Shown in pieces: positions 4,347 through 35,437 of a stretch of 64,000 nt of DNA. The stretch's first letter is position 1. Every line of letters starts with the position of its first letter. The DNA lies in sequence record NC_054925.1. The stretch is one strand, 5' to 3'. Under the pieces are notes generated by a model. The model made no database searches. It was not told where the DNA came from and was given only the letters and a program-made list of their open reading frames with translations. The DNA comes from Escherichia phage vB_EcoM_NBG2. Position numbers and translations under genes: made by a program.

Positions 4347-4614
4347 ATTTAAAACGAATAGTTGAATCCTTAAAGAACAGCCCAGAACATACTGTTCCTT
4401 CTACTTTCTGCCCGGTAGGTCCAATAGCACGAAATCCAGTATGCTGGAAATCATTTTCAGAGCAACCGAACCAGTTATATCCAGTGATTTCAATATTAGT
4501 AAACCCACTTGAAGACAAAACTTTGGTTGCATTATCAGCATCAGTACATCCTACTAAAGATACTGCTAATACTAATGCCGCGATAGAACGATTAACATAT
4601 TTCATAATTTTCAC
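4345..4614 (-). CDS. putative lipoprotein
   Basis: 89 aa; N-terminal hydrophobic segment ending LVGC (lipobox-like). Confidence 0.5.
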   Translation of the reverse strand: MKIMKYVNRSIAALVLAVSLVGCTDADNATKVLSSSGFTNIEITGYNWFGCSENDFQHTGFRAIGPTGQKVEGTVCSGLFFKDSTIRFK

Positions 4615-4982
4615 TTAAATTTAATGGCTTGAAGAAGACTAATAACTCTCAAGCGACTTCTTTCATCTTTAACTGTAAAAGAAAGAGGGTCACCAGACTT
4701 CATAGTAATAGTGCATTCAAAATCAAAATCTTCGGAAACTTCTTTGAAGAAGTCAAATTCTTCATCATAAATTAAAACTTCACTCCGAAGACTGTGAAGA
4801 ATTTTTCCGTCATTTCCAGATGCTGTACTAATCATTGTAACATTATTACCTTTCATATCTTCAACGATAAATTCGCTTGTAGATATTACAGCATTAATAG
4901 AACCATTCCTATAAATAGCAGAAAATAGATATTTCTTTTCTTCACCTTCGCGAATGCGATATTTCTTACCGATTTTAAACAT
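4611..4982 (-). CDS. hypothetical protein
   Basis: 123 aa ORF, 4-nt overlap with downstream gene. Confidence 0.5.
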   Translation of the reverse strand: MFKIGKKYRIREGEEKKYLFSAIYRNGSINAVISTSEFIVEDMKGNNVTMISTASGNDGKILHSLRSEVLIYDEEFDFFKEVSEDFDFECTITMKSGDPLSFTVKDERSRLRVISLLQAIKFK

Positions 4983-4984
4983 AA

Positions 4985-5161
4985 TTACCCTTTAAGTAAG
5001 TCGTAAAATCCGCCATTCACATGCTTAGGGGCAGAGACTAACCGAATAGCAATCCGATGACAATCAGGACATACATCAGTATCTCTTTCAGAAATTTTCT
5101 TGATTTTTTCGTATTCTTTTGCGCAGTCTTTTGATTGACATTTATAATCATAAAGCGGCAT
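4985..5161 (-). CDS. small zinc-ribbon protein (CxxC...CxxC)
   Basis: 58 aa ORF below the track threshold, read by hand; two CxxC pairs; fills gap between flanking genes. Confidence 0.4.
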   Translation of the reverse strand: MPLYDYKCQSKDCAKEYEKIKKISERDTDVCPDCHRIAIRLVSAPKHVNGGFYDLLKG

Positions 5162-5163
5162 AA

Positions 5164-5577
5164 TTATTCCTTAAAGTGAGCTTTCAACATCTGATACAAG
5201 GACCATGCCTGTTCATCATTTTCAATAGTAACTTTCATTACAGGGAATTTAGATTGATCAGTTATCGGTGCAGATTCTTCCTGCTCTTCAGCTGCCTGGT
5301 ATGGATTTTCAACTTCATTAAAGAATTCAGCTTCATTCGATGAAAGCCAAATAAAATCTTCATCCAAAATATCTTTACCAGAAGATAGTACTAAATTTCC
5401 AGCAAATGACATAATTTTAATAGGACGCCCAAGAGCATCCACATCTAAAATTTTAAAAGGATGCATACCTAAACGGCGTGCATAGATTCCGTTATCAGTA
5501 TGGTCTTTAATAAAATTTTCTTGAGCTTGTTTATTTTTAAATTGATACCATTTATTAACTTCAAATCTAATAGCCAT
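5164..5577 (-). CDS. hypothetical early protein
   Basis: 137 aa ORF in early-gene tiling. Confidence 0.5.
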
Positions 5578-5795
5578 TAATAAATTTCCTTCCAGTAAGT
5601 TGTGCCATCTTCAGTGATTTCACGGAATACACCATAAATTGGTTGTTTATCACCGACTTTCTCATATACATAAACCGAAGTCAAGTGAGTAAACTTGATA
5701 GTGTGTTCCTTTTGAACTACTACCAAATCTGGATCGAATAATACATCTTCAAATTCATCATTAGTGCAATTCTGAACAATTTTACGTTTCATCAT
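5577..5795 (-). CDS. hypothetical protein
   Basis: 72 aa ORF, start overlaps stop of upstream gene. Confidence 0.45.
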
Positions 5796-5966
5796 AATTT
5801 CCTCATTAATTGAACATTGGAGCGATGCGTTTCAGAAGAGTATCAGCGCACCTTTAACGAATTATCCATTTTATTCTTCAAGTTGTTTTCTGTATCAGTA
5901 GTTGATATTGATATAGTACCATAATCAACTACTGATGTATATAGTTTTATGAAAAAATTTTAAACT

Positions 5967-6458
5967 TTATGCATAGCGAGCTTTGCTGTAGTGTTTAATC
6001 CAACTTTCAGGAATGACTTTGTATGTTCCTAAAAATACCGCGTTGTATAACTTAACGCCATCTTCAATCCACTGGTCAGTAATGTATGCACACATAGCGC
6101 GAGTACGCTGAGGAAGTGGTTGTCCACCTTCGGTAAATTCAAACTCATAAGGAGCAACGAACTTGATAGCTTGACCGAGTTTCCACTTAAAGTCTACACC
6201 TACATGCGAAGTATCAATCGTTTCAATTCCTTTAGCAGGAACAGCTTTCAAAAACGCAGGCTCAAGAAATTTCCATCGAACATAACCAAACTGGGGCTTA
6301 GACATTCCATCTTTAGCAATGATACGTACTTTTACTTCAGAATCTTCATCTTTAACACCGTGTTTAAGCTGAATGCTTACAACTTCGACCAATTTTCCTG
6401 CTGCTTTAGAACGGGATTTATCAGATACACGAGCAATTTCACCGATATTAATATTCAT
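5967..6458 (-). CDS. motB: MotB-like protein (named by position and size only)
   Basis: 163 aa; position between 39 region and dexA as in T4; early promoter upstream; C-terminal motif shared with next ORF. Confidence 0.45.
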   Translation of the reverse strand: MNINIGEIARVSDKSRSKAAGKLVEVVSIQLKHGVKDEDSEVKVRIIAKDGMSKPQFGYVRWKFLEPAFLKAVPAKGIETIDTSHVGVDFKWKLGQAIKFVAPYEFEFTEGGQPLPQRTRAMCAYITDQWIEDGVKLYNAVFLGTYKVIPESWIKHYSKARYA

Positions 6459-6502
6459 AATTATCTCTCACTTGTTAAAAAGATTTTATACTCCACAGGA
6501 CC

Positions 6503-20056: not shown

Positions 20057-20401
20057 TTAAAAGAATTTAAATTTTTTCTTTGACCTTTTATTAAATGCAT
20101 CTTGCAGTTGCATTGTAATACATTTTTCTACATGAGGAGCTAACTCAGCTTTTCTTTCTTGGTCAAGAACAGCAAAGTCCATTACAACCTTTCCATCAAC
20201 CCAATCCAGTTTAGTTACATACACTATATGTGTAGAACCATCTTCTAGTTTAATGACAATCTCCTGGATAACATTTTCCATAGCGGATTTAATTATCTTA
20301 AGAGACTCATTAAAAAGACGTTCTTTTCTTTCTTCTTCCCCCTCCGAAGAGGGGGATTCATCGATAATTTCTAGATCTAAATCTAAATCATCTTTATTCA
20401 T
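20057..20401 (-). CDS. 40: gene 40-like protein (named by position)
   Basis: Track ORF starts on GTG at 20419; internal ATG at 20401 overlaps uvsX stop (ATGAATAA); start uncertain. Confidence 0.45.
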   Translation of the reverse strand: MNKDDLDLDLEIIDESPSSEGEEERKERLFNESLKIIKSAMENVIQEIVIKLEDGSTHIVYVTKLDWVDGKVVMDFAVLDQERKAELAPHVEKCITMQLQDAFNKRSKKKFKFF

Positions 20402-21575
20402 TAAATTCTTCCATATCACTTAACTGTTCGAGGTCAGTTTCTAAATCAGCAGCTGATTTACTTTTACTTTCTGGAGATTTAAATTTTTCAACCTTTGAGT
20501 TAATCAATTCATCAACTTCAGCTTCAACAATTTCATTACTATCAATAGCACCTAACTGATAAGCACGTTTAATAGCATCTCGGAATGGTTGATGCTTAAA
20601 TAAAGGGCCCCAGAATGTAGTGCAGTTAGTATCTTTTGCACGCCAAGATTTTTCTTCGCGAATCATCTCGCCGGTTTCTTCATCAAGAAATTCACGAGCA
20701 TACCAGCCATTTTTAGGTTTTACTACAAATCCTAATTCTAGAGCCATATCTAACAATCCAGAATAAGGATCGATACCACCGTCAAATTTAACATCAATAA
20801 AGAATTTACTTTTTTCTTTAACGGTACGAGATTTTTCTACATTTAGAACAAATTGATATCCCTGAAGATCAGAACCATCTTTAATCTGACGCTTACCGAT
20901 AATGAATACAGTATCAGCTGAATACATTACGCCTGTACCACCTGTCATCACGGTTTTACTAAACATTTCAATGGTTTCAATTGTATGGTTAACCGCAACA
21001 CATGGAATATTTTTAATGCTAAAATAAGGAGTAACAATACGGAATAATGACTTCAGTGATTTAGCACGAGTCATATCTGCCACAGATTTTTCATTCAAGG
21101 CATCTTCCGTTTCTTTCTTAGAAGCCATATTACCAATTGAGTCGATGAATACAATAACCTTTTCACCACGCTCAATAGCTTCAAGCTGATTCACCATATC
21201 AATTTTCAGCTGTTCAACTGACTGGATTGGTGTATGAATTACTCGTTCCGGGTCAACTCCCATGGATCGCAAATAAGCTGGAGTAATACCAAATTCGCTA
21301 TCATAGAATAGACAAACTGCATCAGGATATTTGTTCAAATACGCTGCAACCATAGTCAAAGACATATTTGATTTAAAGTGTTTAGAAGGCCCTGCGAAAA
21401 TAGTTAAACCAGACTGCATACCGCCATCAATCGCACCAGAAATAGCAATATTAAGCATTGGGATTTTTGTACGGATTACATCCTTTTCATTAAAGAATTT
21501 AGATGTAGTCAGTTCAGCAGTCATTTTAGAAGTGGAAGCTTTAATCAAACGGGATTTTAAATCTGCAATAGACAT
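20394..21575 (-). CDS. uvsX: UvsX recombinase (RecA-like)
   Basis: 393 aa; RecA-fold P-loop region (AGPSKHFKS); acidic C-terminus. Confidence 0.9.
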   Translation of the reverse strand: MSIADLKSRLIKASTSKMTAELTTSKFFNEKDVIRTKIPMLNIAISGAIDGGMQSGLTIFAGPSKHFKSNMSLTMVAAYLNKYPDAVCLFYDSEFGITPAYLRSMGVDPERVIHTPIQSVEQLKIDMVNQLEAIERGEKVIVFIDSIGNMASKKETEDALNEKSVADMTRAKSLKSLFRIVTPYFSIKNIPCVAVNHTIETIEMFSKTVMTGGTGVMYSADTVFIIGKRQIKDGSDLQGYQFVLNVEKSRTVKEKSKFFIDVKFDGGIDPYSGLLDMALELGFVVKPKNGWYAREFLDEETGEMIREEKSWRAKDTNCTTFWGPLFKHQPFRDAIKRAYQLGAIDSNEIVEAEVDELINSKVEKFKSPESKSKSAADLETDLEQLSDMEEFNE

Positions 21576-21652
21576 TCATTTTTTCCATAGGCATCATTAT
21601 ATTTTCCTCACTGGTTAAAGATAGAGTAATTATAACACAATAAATTTAGGCA

Positions 21653-22501
21653 TTAATCAACTGCTATTGGATGAATAGCATTAAACTTATGAAATGCTTC
21701 TGATTTTTCTTTACGCGAAACACACATGCGAAGAACCTTTAATGGATCGTCTTCTTCACCCAACGATTTTCGTTTTTCAATATTCGATGTTTTCCAACGA
21801 GCTTGCTCTGGAAACTCTCTATTGATTTGCTCAAGCGCTCTATTATGTTTAGAATTACTACGAATTGAACTGCACCCGCCAGGAGCTTGTGCTTTTCCAG
21901 ATACAACCAGATATTTGAACAAGGCCAAATGCGGATAACCTTGATTAATTAAATTGAGAAATGCATACATATCTTCGCATAAATCAATTTTTCCATACCC
22001 AATTTGTTCTGTCGTAAGTTTTCCAAGGTCATACCATGTATTCGTGAATCCATATGAATTTTCACGATAATTACCCCAAGATGAAGTAATTTTAAAAATT
22101 GGTAGACGAGCATGGCCATGATAATATCCGCAATCCATGGCATCCTCAACATATTGAATCAATTCATAGAACTGTTCACGAGTTAATTGATTAATTTTAT
22201 CTACGCAGCGACGATCATCTTTCTTTCGCATTGAACTCATACGAATAGTAGTATCATCATCGATCATCCAAATTCGCTGACCTGCATACATATCAGTAAT
22301 TGCTTTACGAGTTCCAGCAATTCCATTAACATCATCAGGAATAGTTATAATTTTAGCTCTAGACCCATAAGCGTCATAATAAGCTTTTTCTTCGTGTTTA
22401 CGTACTACAATATGAGGTTCATAATCAGATGGAAACATATCAAGGGCAGAAACTGCCCCTACGCGTTGATAGCTTGGAATTACGAATTGAATCATTTCCA
22501 C
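21653..22501 (-). CDS. putative GT-A fold (GT2-like) glycosyltransferase at the beta-gt locus
   Basis: 282 aa; N-terminal FVIPSYQR and DxD-like WMIDDDT; between uvsX and gene 42. Confidence 0.55.
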   Translation of the reverse strand: MEMIQFVIPSYQRVGAVSALDMFPSDYEPHIVVRKHEEKAYYDAYGSRAKIITIPDDVNGIAGTRKAITDMYAGQRIWMIDDDTTIRMSSMRKKDDRRCVDKINQLTREQFYELIQYVEDAMDCGYYHGHARLPIFKITSSWGNYRENSYGFTNTWYDLGKLTTEQIGYGKIDLCEDMYAFLNLINQGYPHLALFKYLVVSGKAQAPGGCSSIRSNSKHNRALEQINREFPEQARWKTSNIEKRKSLGEEDDPLKVLRMCVSRKEKSEAFHKFNAIHPIAVD

Positions 22502-23232
22502 TCACCGTTATAATCTTTTTTCGCAATATGAGTTTCGCCAGTTTTCCACCAATGGTCAACCAAGTAAAAATGACGGGAATACACATGAAGACTTCCGACA
22601 TTCCATATAATGGAACCCGCTTTATACTGGCGAGTTGAATCACCTGCATTCAAATCAGATACTAATTTATCTAGTACGTATTTTTGCCACGCATAATCAT
22701 TGCGGAATCCGAAGACCACGTCATTTGAGCGCATGTTAACTACTGCATTGACTTTCTTATCACGAATCAGATACTGTACTGTATTCGTACACATGAAATC
22801 TGACATACCATCTTTATTGTAGTCAAACTGCATGGATGGACGAGTATAAATCATGATACCACGTCGAGAATCAGGATTTTGACCAAGTTCAGCTAAACAC
22901 ATATCATACTGGGCATAGTTATCTTCTGACCAGATAGCCCAGCCATAATTCGAGTTAATTTCACCTTTAGAAGATGCTACCTGTTGCCAAATCTTTGGCG
23001 TTTCGCCTGGAATATCTTTAACAAACAGACTTTGAGACTTATACCATTCAAGTTCACGTTGAATGTATTCATCATTAAGAGCACCAAAAATAAAAGGTTC
23101 ATCTGCTACAAATGATGCGCCAATAATTTCAATAGTTTTAACACCAGTTTTATCAACTACGAAATCTTTTTCCTTTAATGCAATTCCCAAATGAAGACGG
23201 GTTTCTTCAACTGTCATAGAGTCATTAATCAT
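22492..23232 (-). CDS. 42: dCMP hydroxymethylase (gene 42)
   Basis: 246 aa; thymidylate-synthase-like family; size as T4 gp42. Confidence 0.9.
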   Translation of the reverse strand: MINDSMTVEETRLHLGIALKEKDFVVDKTGVKTIEIIGASFVADEPFIFGALNDEYIQRELEWYKSQSLFVKDIPGETPKIWQQVASSKGEINSNYGWAIWSEDNYAQYDMCLAELGQNPDSRRGIMIYTRPSMQFDYNKDGMSDFMCTNTVQYLIRDKKVNAVVNMRSNDVVFGFRNDYAWQKYVLDKLVSDLNAGDSTRQYKAGSIIWNVGSLHVYSRHFYLVDHWWKTGETHIAKKDYNGEWK

Positions 23233-32441: not shown

Positions 32442-33457
32442 TGTGTTGCCTCTACATATAACTGATTTGCATATTGAATAAGTGCTTCACGGTCAGAATC
32501 AGTGATGTCTGGAATTGCATTAATGTATTCTTCCATCAATGTCTGAAGCGATTGAACTTCAACTTCTTCACTGTCATCTGACTCGACAGAGTTATCAATC
32601 TTTGACACAACTCGTAATGAATGCACAACTTTTTCTAGTTCAGATTCGAACTTCGTTAGATTTTTGTCTACTTCAGTTACTATAACACGTACTGATAGAT
32701 TTGTAAAATCTTTATAGTCAATTTTTCCTTTAAATGGATAATGAATTCTACGATGCCAGGTAGTATTGTTTGGAATAAATTCCATTCGTTCTGTTTCTGT
32801 ATCAAACATCCAGAACCCACGAGGGTCATTCTCGTCACCTGCAGTTAGTGTCCATGGTGTCCCAATATATCTGACGTTTGCAGCCTCAGAAATAGTATGG
32901 AAGTGACCAGACCACACTTCTTTATAAGTCTTAAGGAAATCGGGTTCAAGACCGTGAGATTTCATTCCTTTATAAAAATAAAATCCATTCAGTTCCCAGT
33001 GACCAACACAAAAAGAAGCAGATGAAGTTTTGATGTGTTCAAGAATTTCACCAGTGTTTTCTTCACACATCCAAGGAATCAAATCAATCAAACACCCGTC
33101 AAACTCTACTGTAGTAGGCTTATCATATACTTTAACATTAGGATATTTAGCCAAAAGCTCAGTAGAGGCATTTGGATGCATTACATTTTTATAGTGGAGA
33201 TCGTGATTTCCTACAATAGTGTGTAATGTAATTCCAGCATCATCAAGCGTTTGAACTATTTCACGGGCAAACTCCATAGTTTTATGTGTGATCGCTTTTC
33301 TCACATCAAAAATATCACCATATTGAATCCAGGTAGTAATTCCATTTTTCTTAGAATATTCTATTGCTTGTTTAATTCCATCAATTTGAATACCGCGAAT
33401 CCACTCATCATCAGCTTTAACGCCTAAATGCCAATCACCCAAGTTTAGTATTTTCAT
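32438..33457 (-). CDS. 47: recombination nuclease subunit (gene 47, Mre11/SbcD-like)
   Basis: 339 aa; phosphoesterase motifs GDWHLG, GNHD, GHWE. Confidence 0.85.
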   Translation of the reverse strand: MKILNLGDWHLGVKADDEWIRGIQIDGIKQAIEYSKKNGITTWIQYGDIFDVRKAITHKTMEFAREIVQTLDDAGITLHTIVGNHDLHYKNVMHPNASTELLAKYPNVKVYDKPTTVEFDGCLIDLIPWMCEENTGEILEHIKTSSASFCVGHWELNGFYFYKGMKSHGLEPDFLKTYKEVWSGHFHTISEAANVRYIGTPWTLTAGDENDPRGFWMFDTETERMEFIPNNTTWHRRIHYPFKGKIDYKDFTNLSVRVIVTEVDKNLTKFESELEKVVHSLRVVSKIDNSVESDDSEEVEVQSLQTLMEEYINAIPDITDSDREALIQYANQLYVEATQ

Positions 33458-34058
33458 GGTGTCTTTTCCATCCTAATTTAGCTGCTTTTGAAACTAGTTC
33501 TTTAATTTTTCCTTTTGTCCATTCAGGACCAGGAGGTTCATGACATAACATTTGCTTAACTCCGTTATTATACCATTTTTTACCTTTATTATGTGATGAA
33601 GCTTTAAATTTATTTGACCTTCCTTTTACATAACCTTCTGGAATATAAGGCAAAAAGGCAGATTTTCCTGTTAATGGATCATGTGAATGTATATTTCCTT
33701 TACAATTATGAGAACCATATAATGGATGATTTTGTCCTTTATTATCTCTTCCAAATGAACCTTTTGGAGCAGCATATGACATATTAAAGAATAATGGATT
33801 TTTAACTGCATCATGCAATCGTTGATAATATAACTCGCATTTAATAGCTTCTTCACGCGTATCAAATTTAGCTAAAATGCATGAATCAAATAAGTGAGGA
33901 TTATCTGAAAGCTCTTTATTATAAATTTTCTTATACTTTTTAGATAAAACTGAACCATGATATCCAGCTAAATGCCTATCTAAAGACGTAGATCCAATAT
34001 AAAAAGGAGGAAGTTTATCTCCACTATATATTGTTAAATAAGTTATATATTTTTTCAT
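33435..34058 (-). CDS. GIY-YIG-like protein, possible homing-endonuclease relative
   Basis: 207 aa; N-terminal YITYLTIYSG...FYIGSTS...R motif and basic K/N-rich C-terminus; overlaps gene 47 start by 23 nt. Confidence 0.4.
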   Translation of the reverse strand: MKKYITYLTIYSGDKLPPFYIGSTSLDRHLAGYHGSVLSKKYKKIYNKELSDNPHLFDSCILAKFDTREEAIKCELYYQRLHDAVKNPLFFNMSYAAPKGSFGRDNKGQNHPLYGSHNCKGNIHSHDPLTGKSAFLPYIPEGYVKGRSNKFKASSHNKGKKWYNNGVKQMLCHEPPGPEWTKGKIKELVSKAAKLGWKRHHENTKLG

Positions 34059-34218: not shown

Positions 34219-34236
34219 AAAGGGCCGAAGCCCTTT
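34219..34236 (-). terminator. hairpin (UUCG loop) downstream of alpha-gt
   Basis: AAAGGGC-CGAA-GCCCTTT. Confidence 0.5.
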
Positions 34237-35437
34237 ATTTTGTAATAATGTCAAACTGTTCTTTAAAACAGAAGCTTGAATCTTGGTGCTGATACAAAAA
34301 TTCATATGCTTTTTCTCGCTCACGGTCATAAAGAGCTCGGTCAGATGACAGTTCTTTAATACGTTCAAACGTTGATTCCATATCATTTTCATCAAACCAA
34401 ATGATACCGCTATCATGCGAGGTCAAAGGAGTATTATCAACACGGAATTTTAAATTTTCGCCAGTAGATTTCCAAAATACCGGAATTGTTCCACATGCAC
34501 CAAGCTCGAGATGAGTATATTCTAAAGAACGTTGTAGATATTTTTTGTCCAACTTACTCAGCTGATAACCAAATCCGGATTTACTCATGCGTTCAAGCAT
34601 TTCGCTATTTACATAACGATCAAGAATTTGCGTTGGCAAATTAGGAGCAATTTTAATTTGGTCTACTTGATGAAGACGATAATACTCGTATGGAATTCCT
34701 TTTTCTTTAATAGGAATGAACGCTGGAGAACGTTCCAGACCTTCCATAATAGTACTTAGTCCTGCAGGTTTAAGATGTTTTTCATGAAAATCAAACATCT
34801 GATAAAAACCTTTCCATGTAGTCGTACGACCAATCCAACGGTTAACATTCATGTTAATTTCAGAAACATCTTTCCAGTAGGTTGACCGAACCTTCGCAAT
34901 ATCCATAGGAGGCTGAAAGTTATATACTGTCGGTGCTTCTTCAATATCATCAAACAGAGAAACAGTTTCTGGATACCATTCTTTCATCAGAACTTTATTA
35001 AAATCACCATTATCAGAATGACTAAAAATAACATCAGCTCGACGAACAGTTTCTTCTAATCCCAAATTTCGACGCAAAGAAAGAGAAGAATGGTCATGTT
35101 GATAAACTACAACACGAACAGAAGGTTTAATGTTATCAATAATTTTTTTATAGTTATTAATAGTGTCTTCTTCAACCGAAGTAGCAGGAACTGAATTGAT
35201 AATTAGAATATCACAATCATTTACCAGCTTAAGTGTTTTATCATATTCTTTTGCCAATAAAACCGGAATTGAAAATGATTTATAATCATGCGCGCAATTA
35301 CGAGTAAATGATTTATCTTTAGCATAAACCAAAGTTACTTCATGACCATTCTTAATAAACCAATCACGTTGCTCAAGAGAAAATTTAGTTACACCACAAC
35401 CTTCAAGACCTCGAGCCATAAAAATACATACTTTCAT
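34235..35437 (-). CDS. agt: DNA alpha-glucosyltransferase
   Basis: 400 aa; size and position as T4 alpha-gt; N-terminal glycine-rich GLEGCGVTKF. Confidence 0.8.
   Translation of the reverse strand: MKVCIFMARGLEGCGVTKFSLEQRDWFIKNGHEVTLVYAKDKSFTRNCAHDYKSFSIPVLLAKEYDKTLKLVNDCDILIINSVPATSVEEDTINNYKKIIDNIKPSVRVVVYQHDHSSLSLRRNLGLEETVRRADVIFSHSDNGDFNKVLMKEWYPETVSLFDDIEEAPTVYNFQPPMDIAKVRSTYWKDVSEINMNVNRWIGRTTTWKGFYQMFDFHEKHLKPAGLSTIMEGLERSPAFIPIKEKGIPYEYYRLHQVDQIKIAPNLPTQILDRYVNSEMLERMSKSGFGYQLSKLDKKYLQRSLEYTHLELGACGTIPVFWKSTGENLKFRVDNTPLTSHDSGIIWFDENDMESTFERIKELSSDRALYDREREKAYEFLYQHQDSSFCFKEQFDIITK

Follow-up and report, generated by a model that had tools for sequence, protein, structure and literature searches.

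The DNA of phages T2 and T6 contains beta-1,6-glucosyl-alpha-glucosyl (gentiobiosyl) hmC, made by homologous ba-gt enzymes and reaching 5% in T2 and 72% in T6 (PMC6024577). Deletion of ba-gt from T6 leaves only alpha-glucosyl-hmC, and the DNA becomes a substrate of Brig1 in vitro (PMC11078745); BapA treatment frees glucose from T6 delta-g-gt DNA, unlike that of the wild type (bioRxiv 10.64898/2026.02.25.707755). Gentiobiosyl-hmC masks alpha-glucosyl-hmC from both of these glycosylases in vitro (PMC11078745, bioRxiv 10.64898/2026.02.25.707755), and GmrSD/BrxU-type enzymes still cut gentiobiosyl-hmC DNA (PMC13216743, PMC13390438). The second glucose decides which host defences can act on phage DNA.

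The enzyme has been equated with the PF20691 family (TET-associated glycosyltransferase, TAGT; PMC13216743). An AlphaFold3 model of T6 TAGT shows a GT-A fold, sister to GT2, with a-GT and b-GT both GT-B (PMC13216743). The usual set is a-GT or b-GT plus TAGT, and a-GT is paired with b-GT in only 6 of 753 genomes, T4 included (PMC13216743). T6-like Tequatroviruses hold a-GT and TAGT, the latter "at the position syntenic with" T4 b-GT; in seven isolates, TB37 among them, about one-third 5-hmdC and two-thirds alpha-gentiobiosyl-mdC were measured, and modification ratios among the Durham phages are 1:2:2 or 1:0:2, with the Geo, EL and BGP group at an intermediate 1:2:2 (PMC13390438). Possession of a-gt with ba-gt is the standard, long-known state of most Tequatroviruses and T4 is the exception (PMC13216743), a point that an earlier note on the DNA analysed here had missed.

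The locus between gene 42 and uvsX

We analysed a 64-kb window (the whole stretch of DNA under study) from Escherichia phage vB_EcoM_NBG2 (NC_054925.1). Its ORF map contains a minus-strand frame of 282 codons, from a GTG at 22501 to the stop at 21653, flanked by uvsX and gene 42 (Table 1). The earlier note had described a 282-aa protein in this position; the ORF and its placement stand, and the GTG start is probably two codons overlong. The TGA of gene 42 (22494-22492) shares an ATGA with an ATG at 22495-22493, gene 42 ends in AAC GGT GAG TGG AAA TGA, which places a GGTGA 6 nt upstream of that ATG, and the resulting 280-aa start is the one annotated in T2, TB37 and many other records. Because of this overlap, spacing and agreement, the gene likely begins at the ATG and is two codons shorter, a minor correction; GTG 22501 was dropped as a start on the same three grounds, the GGTGA being taken as the Shine-Dalgarno sequence.

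Table 1. Positions of the genes, motifs and other features discussed, in window coordinates
Feature	Coordinates	Strand	Basis or remark
uvsX	20394..21575		PF21134 and PF00154
946-bp segment without DNA similarity to T4	21564..22509	(-)	blastn against T4
ba-gt (= g-gt / TAGT gene), beta-1,6-glucosyl-HMC-alpha-glucose glucosyltransferase	21653..22495	(-)	280 aa; ATG 22495, stop codon 21653-21655
E174-D175 (CED), candidate catalytic-base motif	21971..21976	(-)	start of helix 174-184
DDD (residues 79-81), DxD-type metal/UDP-binding motif	22253..22261	(-)	end of strand E74-78 (model)
Terminator-like hairpin GGGGCAG-UUU-CUGCCC	22441..22461	(-)	inside ba-gt codons 12-18; terminator scan
IPSYQ-R (residues 6-11), N-terminal GT-A nucleotide-sugar-binding motif	22465..22479	(-)	directly after strand beta-1
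gene 42, dCMP hydroxymethylase, hmC supplier	22492..23232	(-)	PF00303; translationally coupled to ba-gt
Homing-endonuclease-like ORF, GIY-YIG/seg-like	33435..34058	(-)	207 aa; between gene 47 and a-gt
alpha-glucosyltransferase (a-gt), makes the alpha-glucosyl-hmC acceptor for ba-gt	34235..35437	(-)	PF11440, E = 4e-237, 786 bits

Comparison of the window with T4 by blastn gives a match that ends at 21563, six bases inside the T4 uvsX start, and restarts at 22510, within the final codons of gene 42, which from there onward has 94% DNA identity to its T4 counterpart. The gene order in T4 is uvsX - segA - b-gt - 42, and the breakpoints therefore show that 946 bp in NBG2 replaces a 1.94-kb segA and b-gt segment of T4 (4557-6497 of the compared T4 stretch). 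T4 annotation and breakpoints thus agree with the earlier claim that the slot of T4 b-gt is taken by ba-gt. Within the window, tblastn returns no homologue of T4 b-gt (best E = 1.4) or of segA, and the T4 b-gt and NBG2 ba-gt proteins have no detectable similarity by blastp (best E = 3.4). The same note had described T4 b-gt as a larger, GT-B enzyme, which agrees with its 351 aa and its published fold (PMC13216743). T2, T6 and TB37 share the order 43 ... imm - 42 - ba-gt - uvsX - 40 - 41, with ba-gt positioned as in NBG2.

The a-gt gene that had been proposed further along the window is borne out by its Pfam match and by 91% identity to T4 a-gt. Between gene 47 and a-gt, the homing-endonuclease-like ORF matches PHROG 10820 (E = 2e-94) and, weakly and below cutoff, Pfam GIY-YIG; it begins before the gene 47 ORF has ended, and the two share 23 nt. 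The annotation of T4 shows just the small gene 47.1 at this place, and that of T6 shows no gene.

Family identity, predicted fold and motifs

The ba-gt protein matches PHROG 842 "beta-glucosyl-HMC-alpha-glucosyltransferase" (E = 1.3e-88, residues 2-277 of 282), and with hundreds of phage records alongside, the ORF is a real gene and a chance ORF is excluded. In Pfam it matches PF20691 over profile positions 2-205 of 205 (38.3 bits, gathering score 27.5), with no match reported for Pfam GT2 (PF00535). Megablast places the gene at 90-99% DNA identity in 477 phage records, with at least 80% of the ORF covered in 473 records, and tblastn finds a homologue in 689, among them a group from Klebsiella, Enterobacter and Citrobacter phages at 60-65% identity and, at 47%, a protein of Serratia phage Muldoon. 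The closest protein is that of Shigella phage SF2-1 (99.6% identity). Homology to the T2/T6 enzyme, the check suggested in the earlier note, is evident: NBG2 is 97.5% identical to T2 (7 of 280 residues differ), synteny is shared, and 9 or 10 of 280 residues differ from T6. The TB37 enzyme (98.2% identity) differs only at S23T, K33E, K92R, I101V and D250E, and none of the 32 invariant columns of an 11-sequence alignment is altered in NBG2. The assignment is based on this identity and on synteny, the fold, the conserved motifs and a window that has a-gt but not b-gt; the gene is very probably an intact copy of the T2/T6-type beta-glucosyl-HMC-alpha-glucosyltransferase, making alpha-gentiobiosyl-hmC after alpha-gt has acted.

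An AlphaFold2 model built from the same alignment (mean pLDDT 77, pTM 0.81; low-confidence loops at residues 131-148 and 202-210) predicts that the fold is GT-A with a DxD motif. Foldseek searches of the PDB return WrtF, RmlT, TarP, TarS, K4CP and GT-A-like nucleotidyltransferases, with no GT-B enzyme among the structural neighbours. The model hence upholds the earlier GT-A proposal, for which a GT-B prediction had been named as the contrary outcome. A PDB sequence search for a solved relative gave chance matches only (E at least 0.77); the fold rests on prediction because the family is without a solved structure.

Both motifs picked out earlier, FVIPSYQR and WMIDDDT, are found in the ORF. I6, P7, S8, Y9 and R11 of the former are invariant across the alignment, and the model has a strand at E3-7. 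D79, D80 and D81 of the latter are likewise invariant and are placed where GT-A enzymes put their DxD. Further along, D175 never varies and E174 is at least 90% conserved; by analogy with the GT2 xED motif, this pair is the putative catalytic base of an inverting GT2-like enzyme, an assignment that fits a beta linkage formed from UDP-alpha-glucose.

Predicted DNA chemistry and alternative readings

In the proposed pathway, Gp42 would make hm-dCMP for incorporation into DNA, alpha-gt would move glucose from UDP-glucose to hmC in alpha linkage, and ba-gt (GT-A, DxD-type, presumably inverting) would add a second glucose from UDP-glucose by a beta-1,6 linkage to give alpha-gentiobiosyl-hmC. We predict that NBG2 virion DNA carries about two-thirds gentiobiosyl-hmC and one-third bare hmC, with mono-alpha-glucosyl-hmC scarce and beta-glucosyl-hmC absent. 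This T6/TB37-like pattern is predicted because the invariant positions are intact, the TB37 enzyme is nearly identical and a dam methylase homologue is absent from the window, a feature that the TB37 group shares but T2 and the Geo, EL and BGP group do not. The ratio is uncertain, since gentiobiosylation differs widely among phages with near-identical enzymes. The chemistry and deletion phenotype are those of the literature, and for NBG2 itself we infer the activity level and the modification ratio. The earlier note had proposed, alongside alpha-gt, a second-sugar pattern like that of T2/T6 or something different; synteny, identity and an a-gt without b-gt support the former, and the latter is not needed.

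The hairpin inside ba-gt lies 34 nt downstream of the gene 42 stop, with an RNA folding energy of -14.1 kcal/mol (z = -2.15) and a T-rich tail after it. Its sequence is identical in T2 and T6, and in Yersinia phage fPS-65 a terminator is annotated under the ba-gt match. Its role may be to limit read-through beyond gene 42, or to make the 3' end of gene 42 mRNA more stable. A promoter scan of the ba-gt region gave 8 sites against 6.4 ± 2.5 in shuffled sequence, revealing no excess.

Laboratory stocks differ from NBG2 in the same gene. All T2 records (PV648364, 3001-3843 of the compared stretch; AP018813, 7283-8125) and the T2-identical SV76 have His at ba-gt residue 11 (NBG2 22463-22465), where every other homologue, NBG2 included, has Arg; of 682 phage records, only 8 contain the T2 N-terminal peptide in its exact form. 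A hypomorphic R11H could, judging from these sequences, underlie the low (~5%) gentiobiosylation of T2 relative to the 72% of T6, a cause for which we found no published statement. In T6 record MH550421 (7138-7980 of the compared stretch) codon 10 is TAG, and the annotated ggt starts at Met20 (261 aa) and lacks the IPSY motif; T6 record AP018814 (4135-4974 of the compared stretch) is missing one repeat of GAT-GAT-GAT, an in-frame deletion that changes DDD to DD. Both sequenced T6 stocks thus probably carry damaging ba-gt changes, different in each. A tentative and rather doubtful extension is that ba-gt is tuned, wild Tequatroviruses being fully active (about two-thirds gentiobiosyl-hmC) and laboratory strains attenuated or inactivated by lesions (R11H in T2; amber and GAT slippage in T6). 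If true, the independent T6 lesions would suggest that the second glucose is subject to recurrent selection or contingency-like switching. The phage contingency-locus preprint concerns agt, not ba-gt, and we found no mention of TAGT in the phage TET paper.

The example of T2, which has the gene yet only ~5% gentiobiosyl-hmC, raises the prospect that NBG2 possesses the enzyme with low activity or low expression, leaving DNA that is mostly mono-alpha-glucosylated. The intermediate ratios of the Geo, EL and BGP phages and the position of the hairpin within codons 12-18 speak for this. T6, however, shares the hairpin and has high gentiobiosylation, and NBG2 is free of the private R11H of T2, with Q10, R11 and DDD intact; the lack of dam also sets it with the TB37 group, apart from T2 and Geo, EL and BGP. 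We regard weak activity as unlikely.

A member of the TAGT family could also have another specificity (in sugar, linkage or direct action on hmC) and so give a new hmC glycosylation pattern. TAGT homologues pair with a-GT or b-GT, or stand alone (NAR 2026; PMC13216743), and these varied partners mean that the wider family may be diverse in specificity; NBG2 itself has private substitutions relative to T2, T6 and TB37 (S23, K33, K92, I101 and D250). Yet these are all conservative and outside the invariant columns, the a-gt partner and synteny are unchanged, and the enzymes of phages with measured gentiobiosyl-hmC (T2, T6, TB37) are 96-99.6% identical, making a changed specificity very improbable. 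Less probable still, to the point of being barely credible, is a non-DNA glycosyltransferase with a host envelope or protein target that occupies the slot by chance. Its structural neighbours are indeed GT2 enzymes of polysaccharide, teichoic-acid and glycan synthesis, but deletion of the orthologous T6 gene alters DNA modification (PMC11078745; bioRxiv 10.64898/2026.02.25.707755), ba-gt is translationally coupled to the dCMP hydroxymethylase gene, and PF20691 was defined via association with DNA-modification genes.

Relation to known systems

We therefore return to an ordinary T2/T6-type enzyme, every element of which is already published, as PMC6024577, PMC11078745, PMC13216743, PMC13390438 and bioRxiv 10.64898/2026.02.25.707755 between them cover the observation. 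Intact a-gt and ba-gt without b-gt allow predictions of the DNA chemistry of NBG2 and of how sensitive it is likely to be to restriction, glycosylases and CRISPR. The assignment is useful for annotation and for the choice of therapy phages, and adds no new biology.

The T2/T6 genes resemble that of NBG2 in length (280 aa), identity (96-97.5%), location between gene 42 and uvsX, a-gt partner, ATGA coupling to gene 42, conserved motifs and hairpin. They differ by a handful of conservative substitutions; NBG2 keeps Arg11, unlike the T2 records, and is without the codon-10 amber and the DDD-to-DD deletion of the two T6 records examined. T4 b-gt (PF09198; PDB 1JG7, PMC13216743) shares with ba-gt the slot by gene 42, the use of UDP-glucose and a beta linkage in hmC DNA. 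It differs in having no sequence similarity, a GT-B fold, 351 rather than 280 aa, segA in its segment and bare hmC as acceptor, whereas ba-gt acts on alpha-glucosyl-hmC. Cellular GT2 enzymes of GT-A fold (WrtF, RmlT, TarP/TarS, K4CP, BcsA, SpsA) are only 7-17% identical to ba-gt, and their acceptors are polysaccharide, lipid or teichoic acid, in place of a sugar on DNA. The DNA arabinosyltransferases of RB69 and Mosigvirus (ORF003c type) are, like ba-gt, phage enzymes that put one or two sugars on modified cytosine; they are not homologous to it, being predicted GT-B enzymes that use arabinose and 5-hydroxycytosine and occupy another slot (PMC6024577, PMC13390438).
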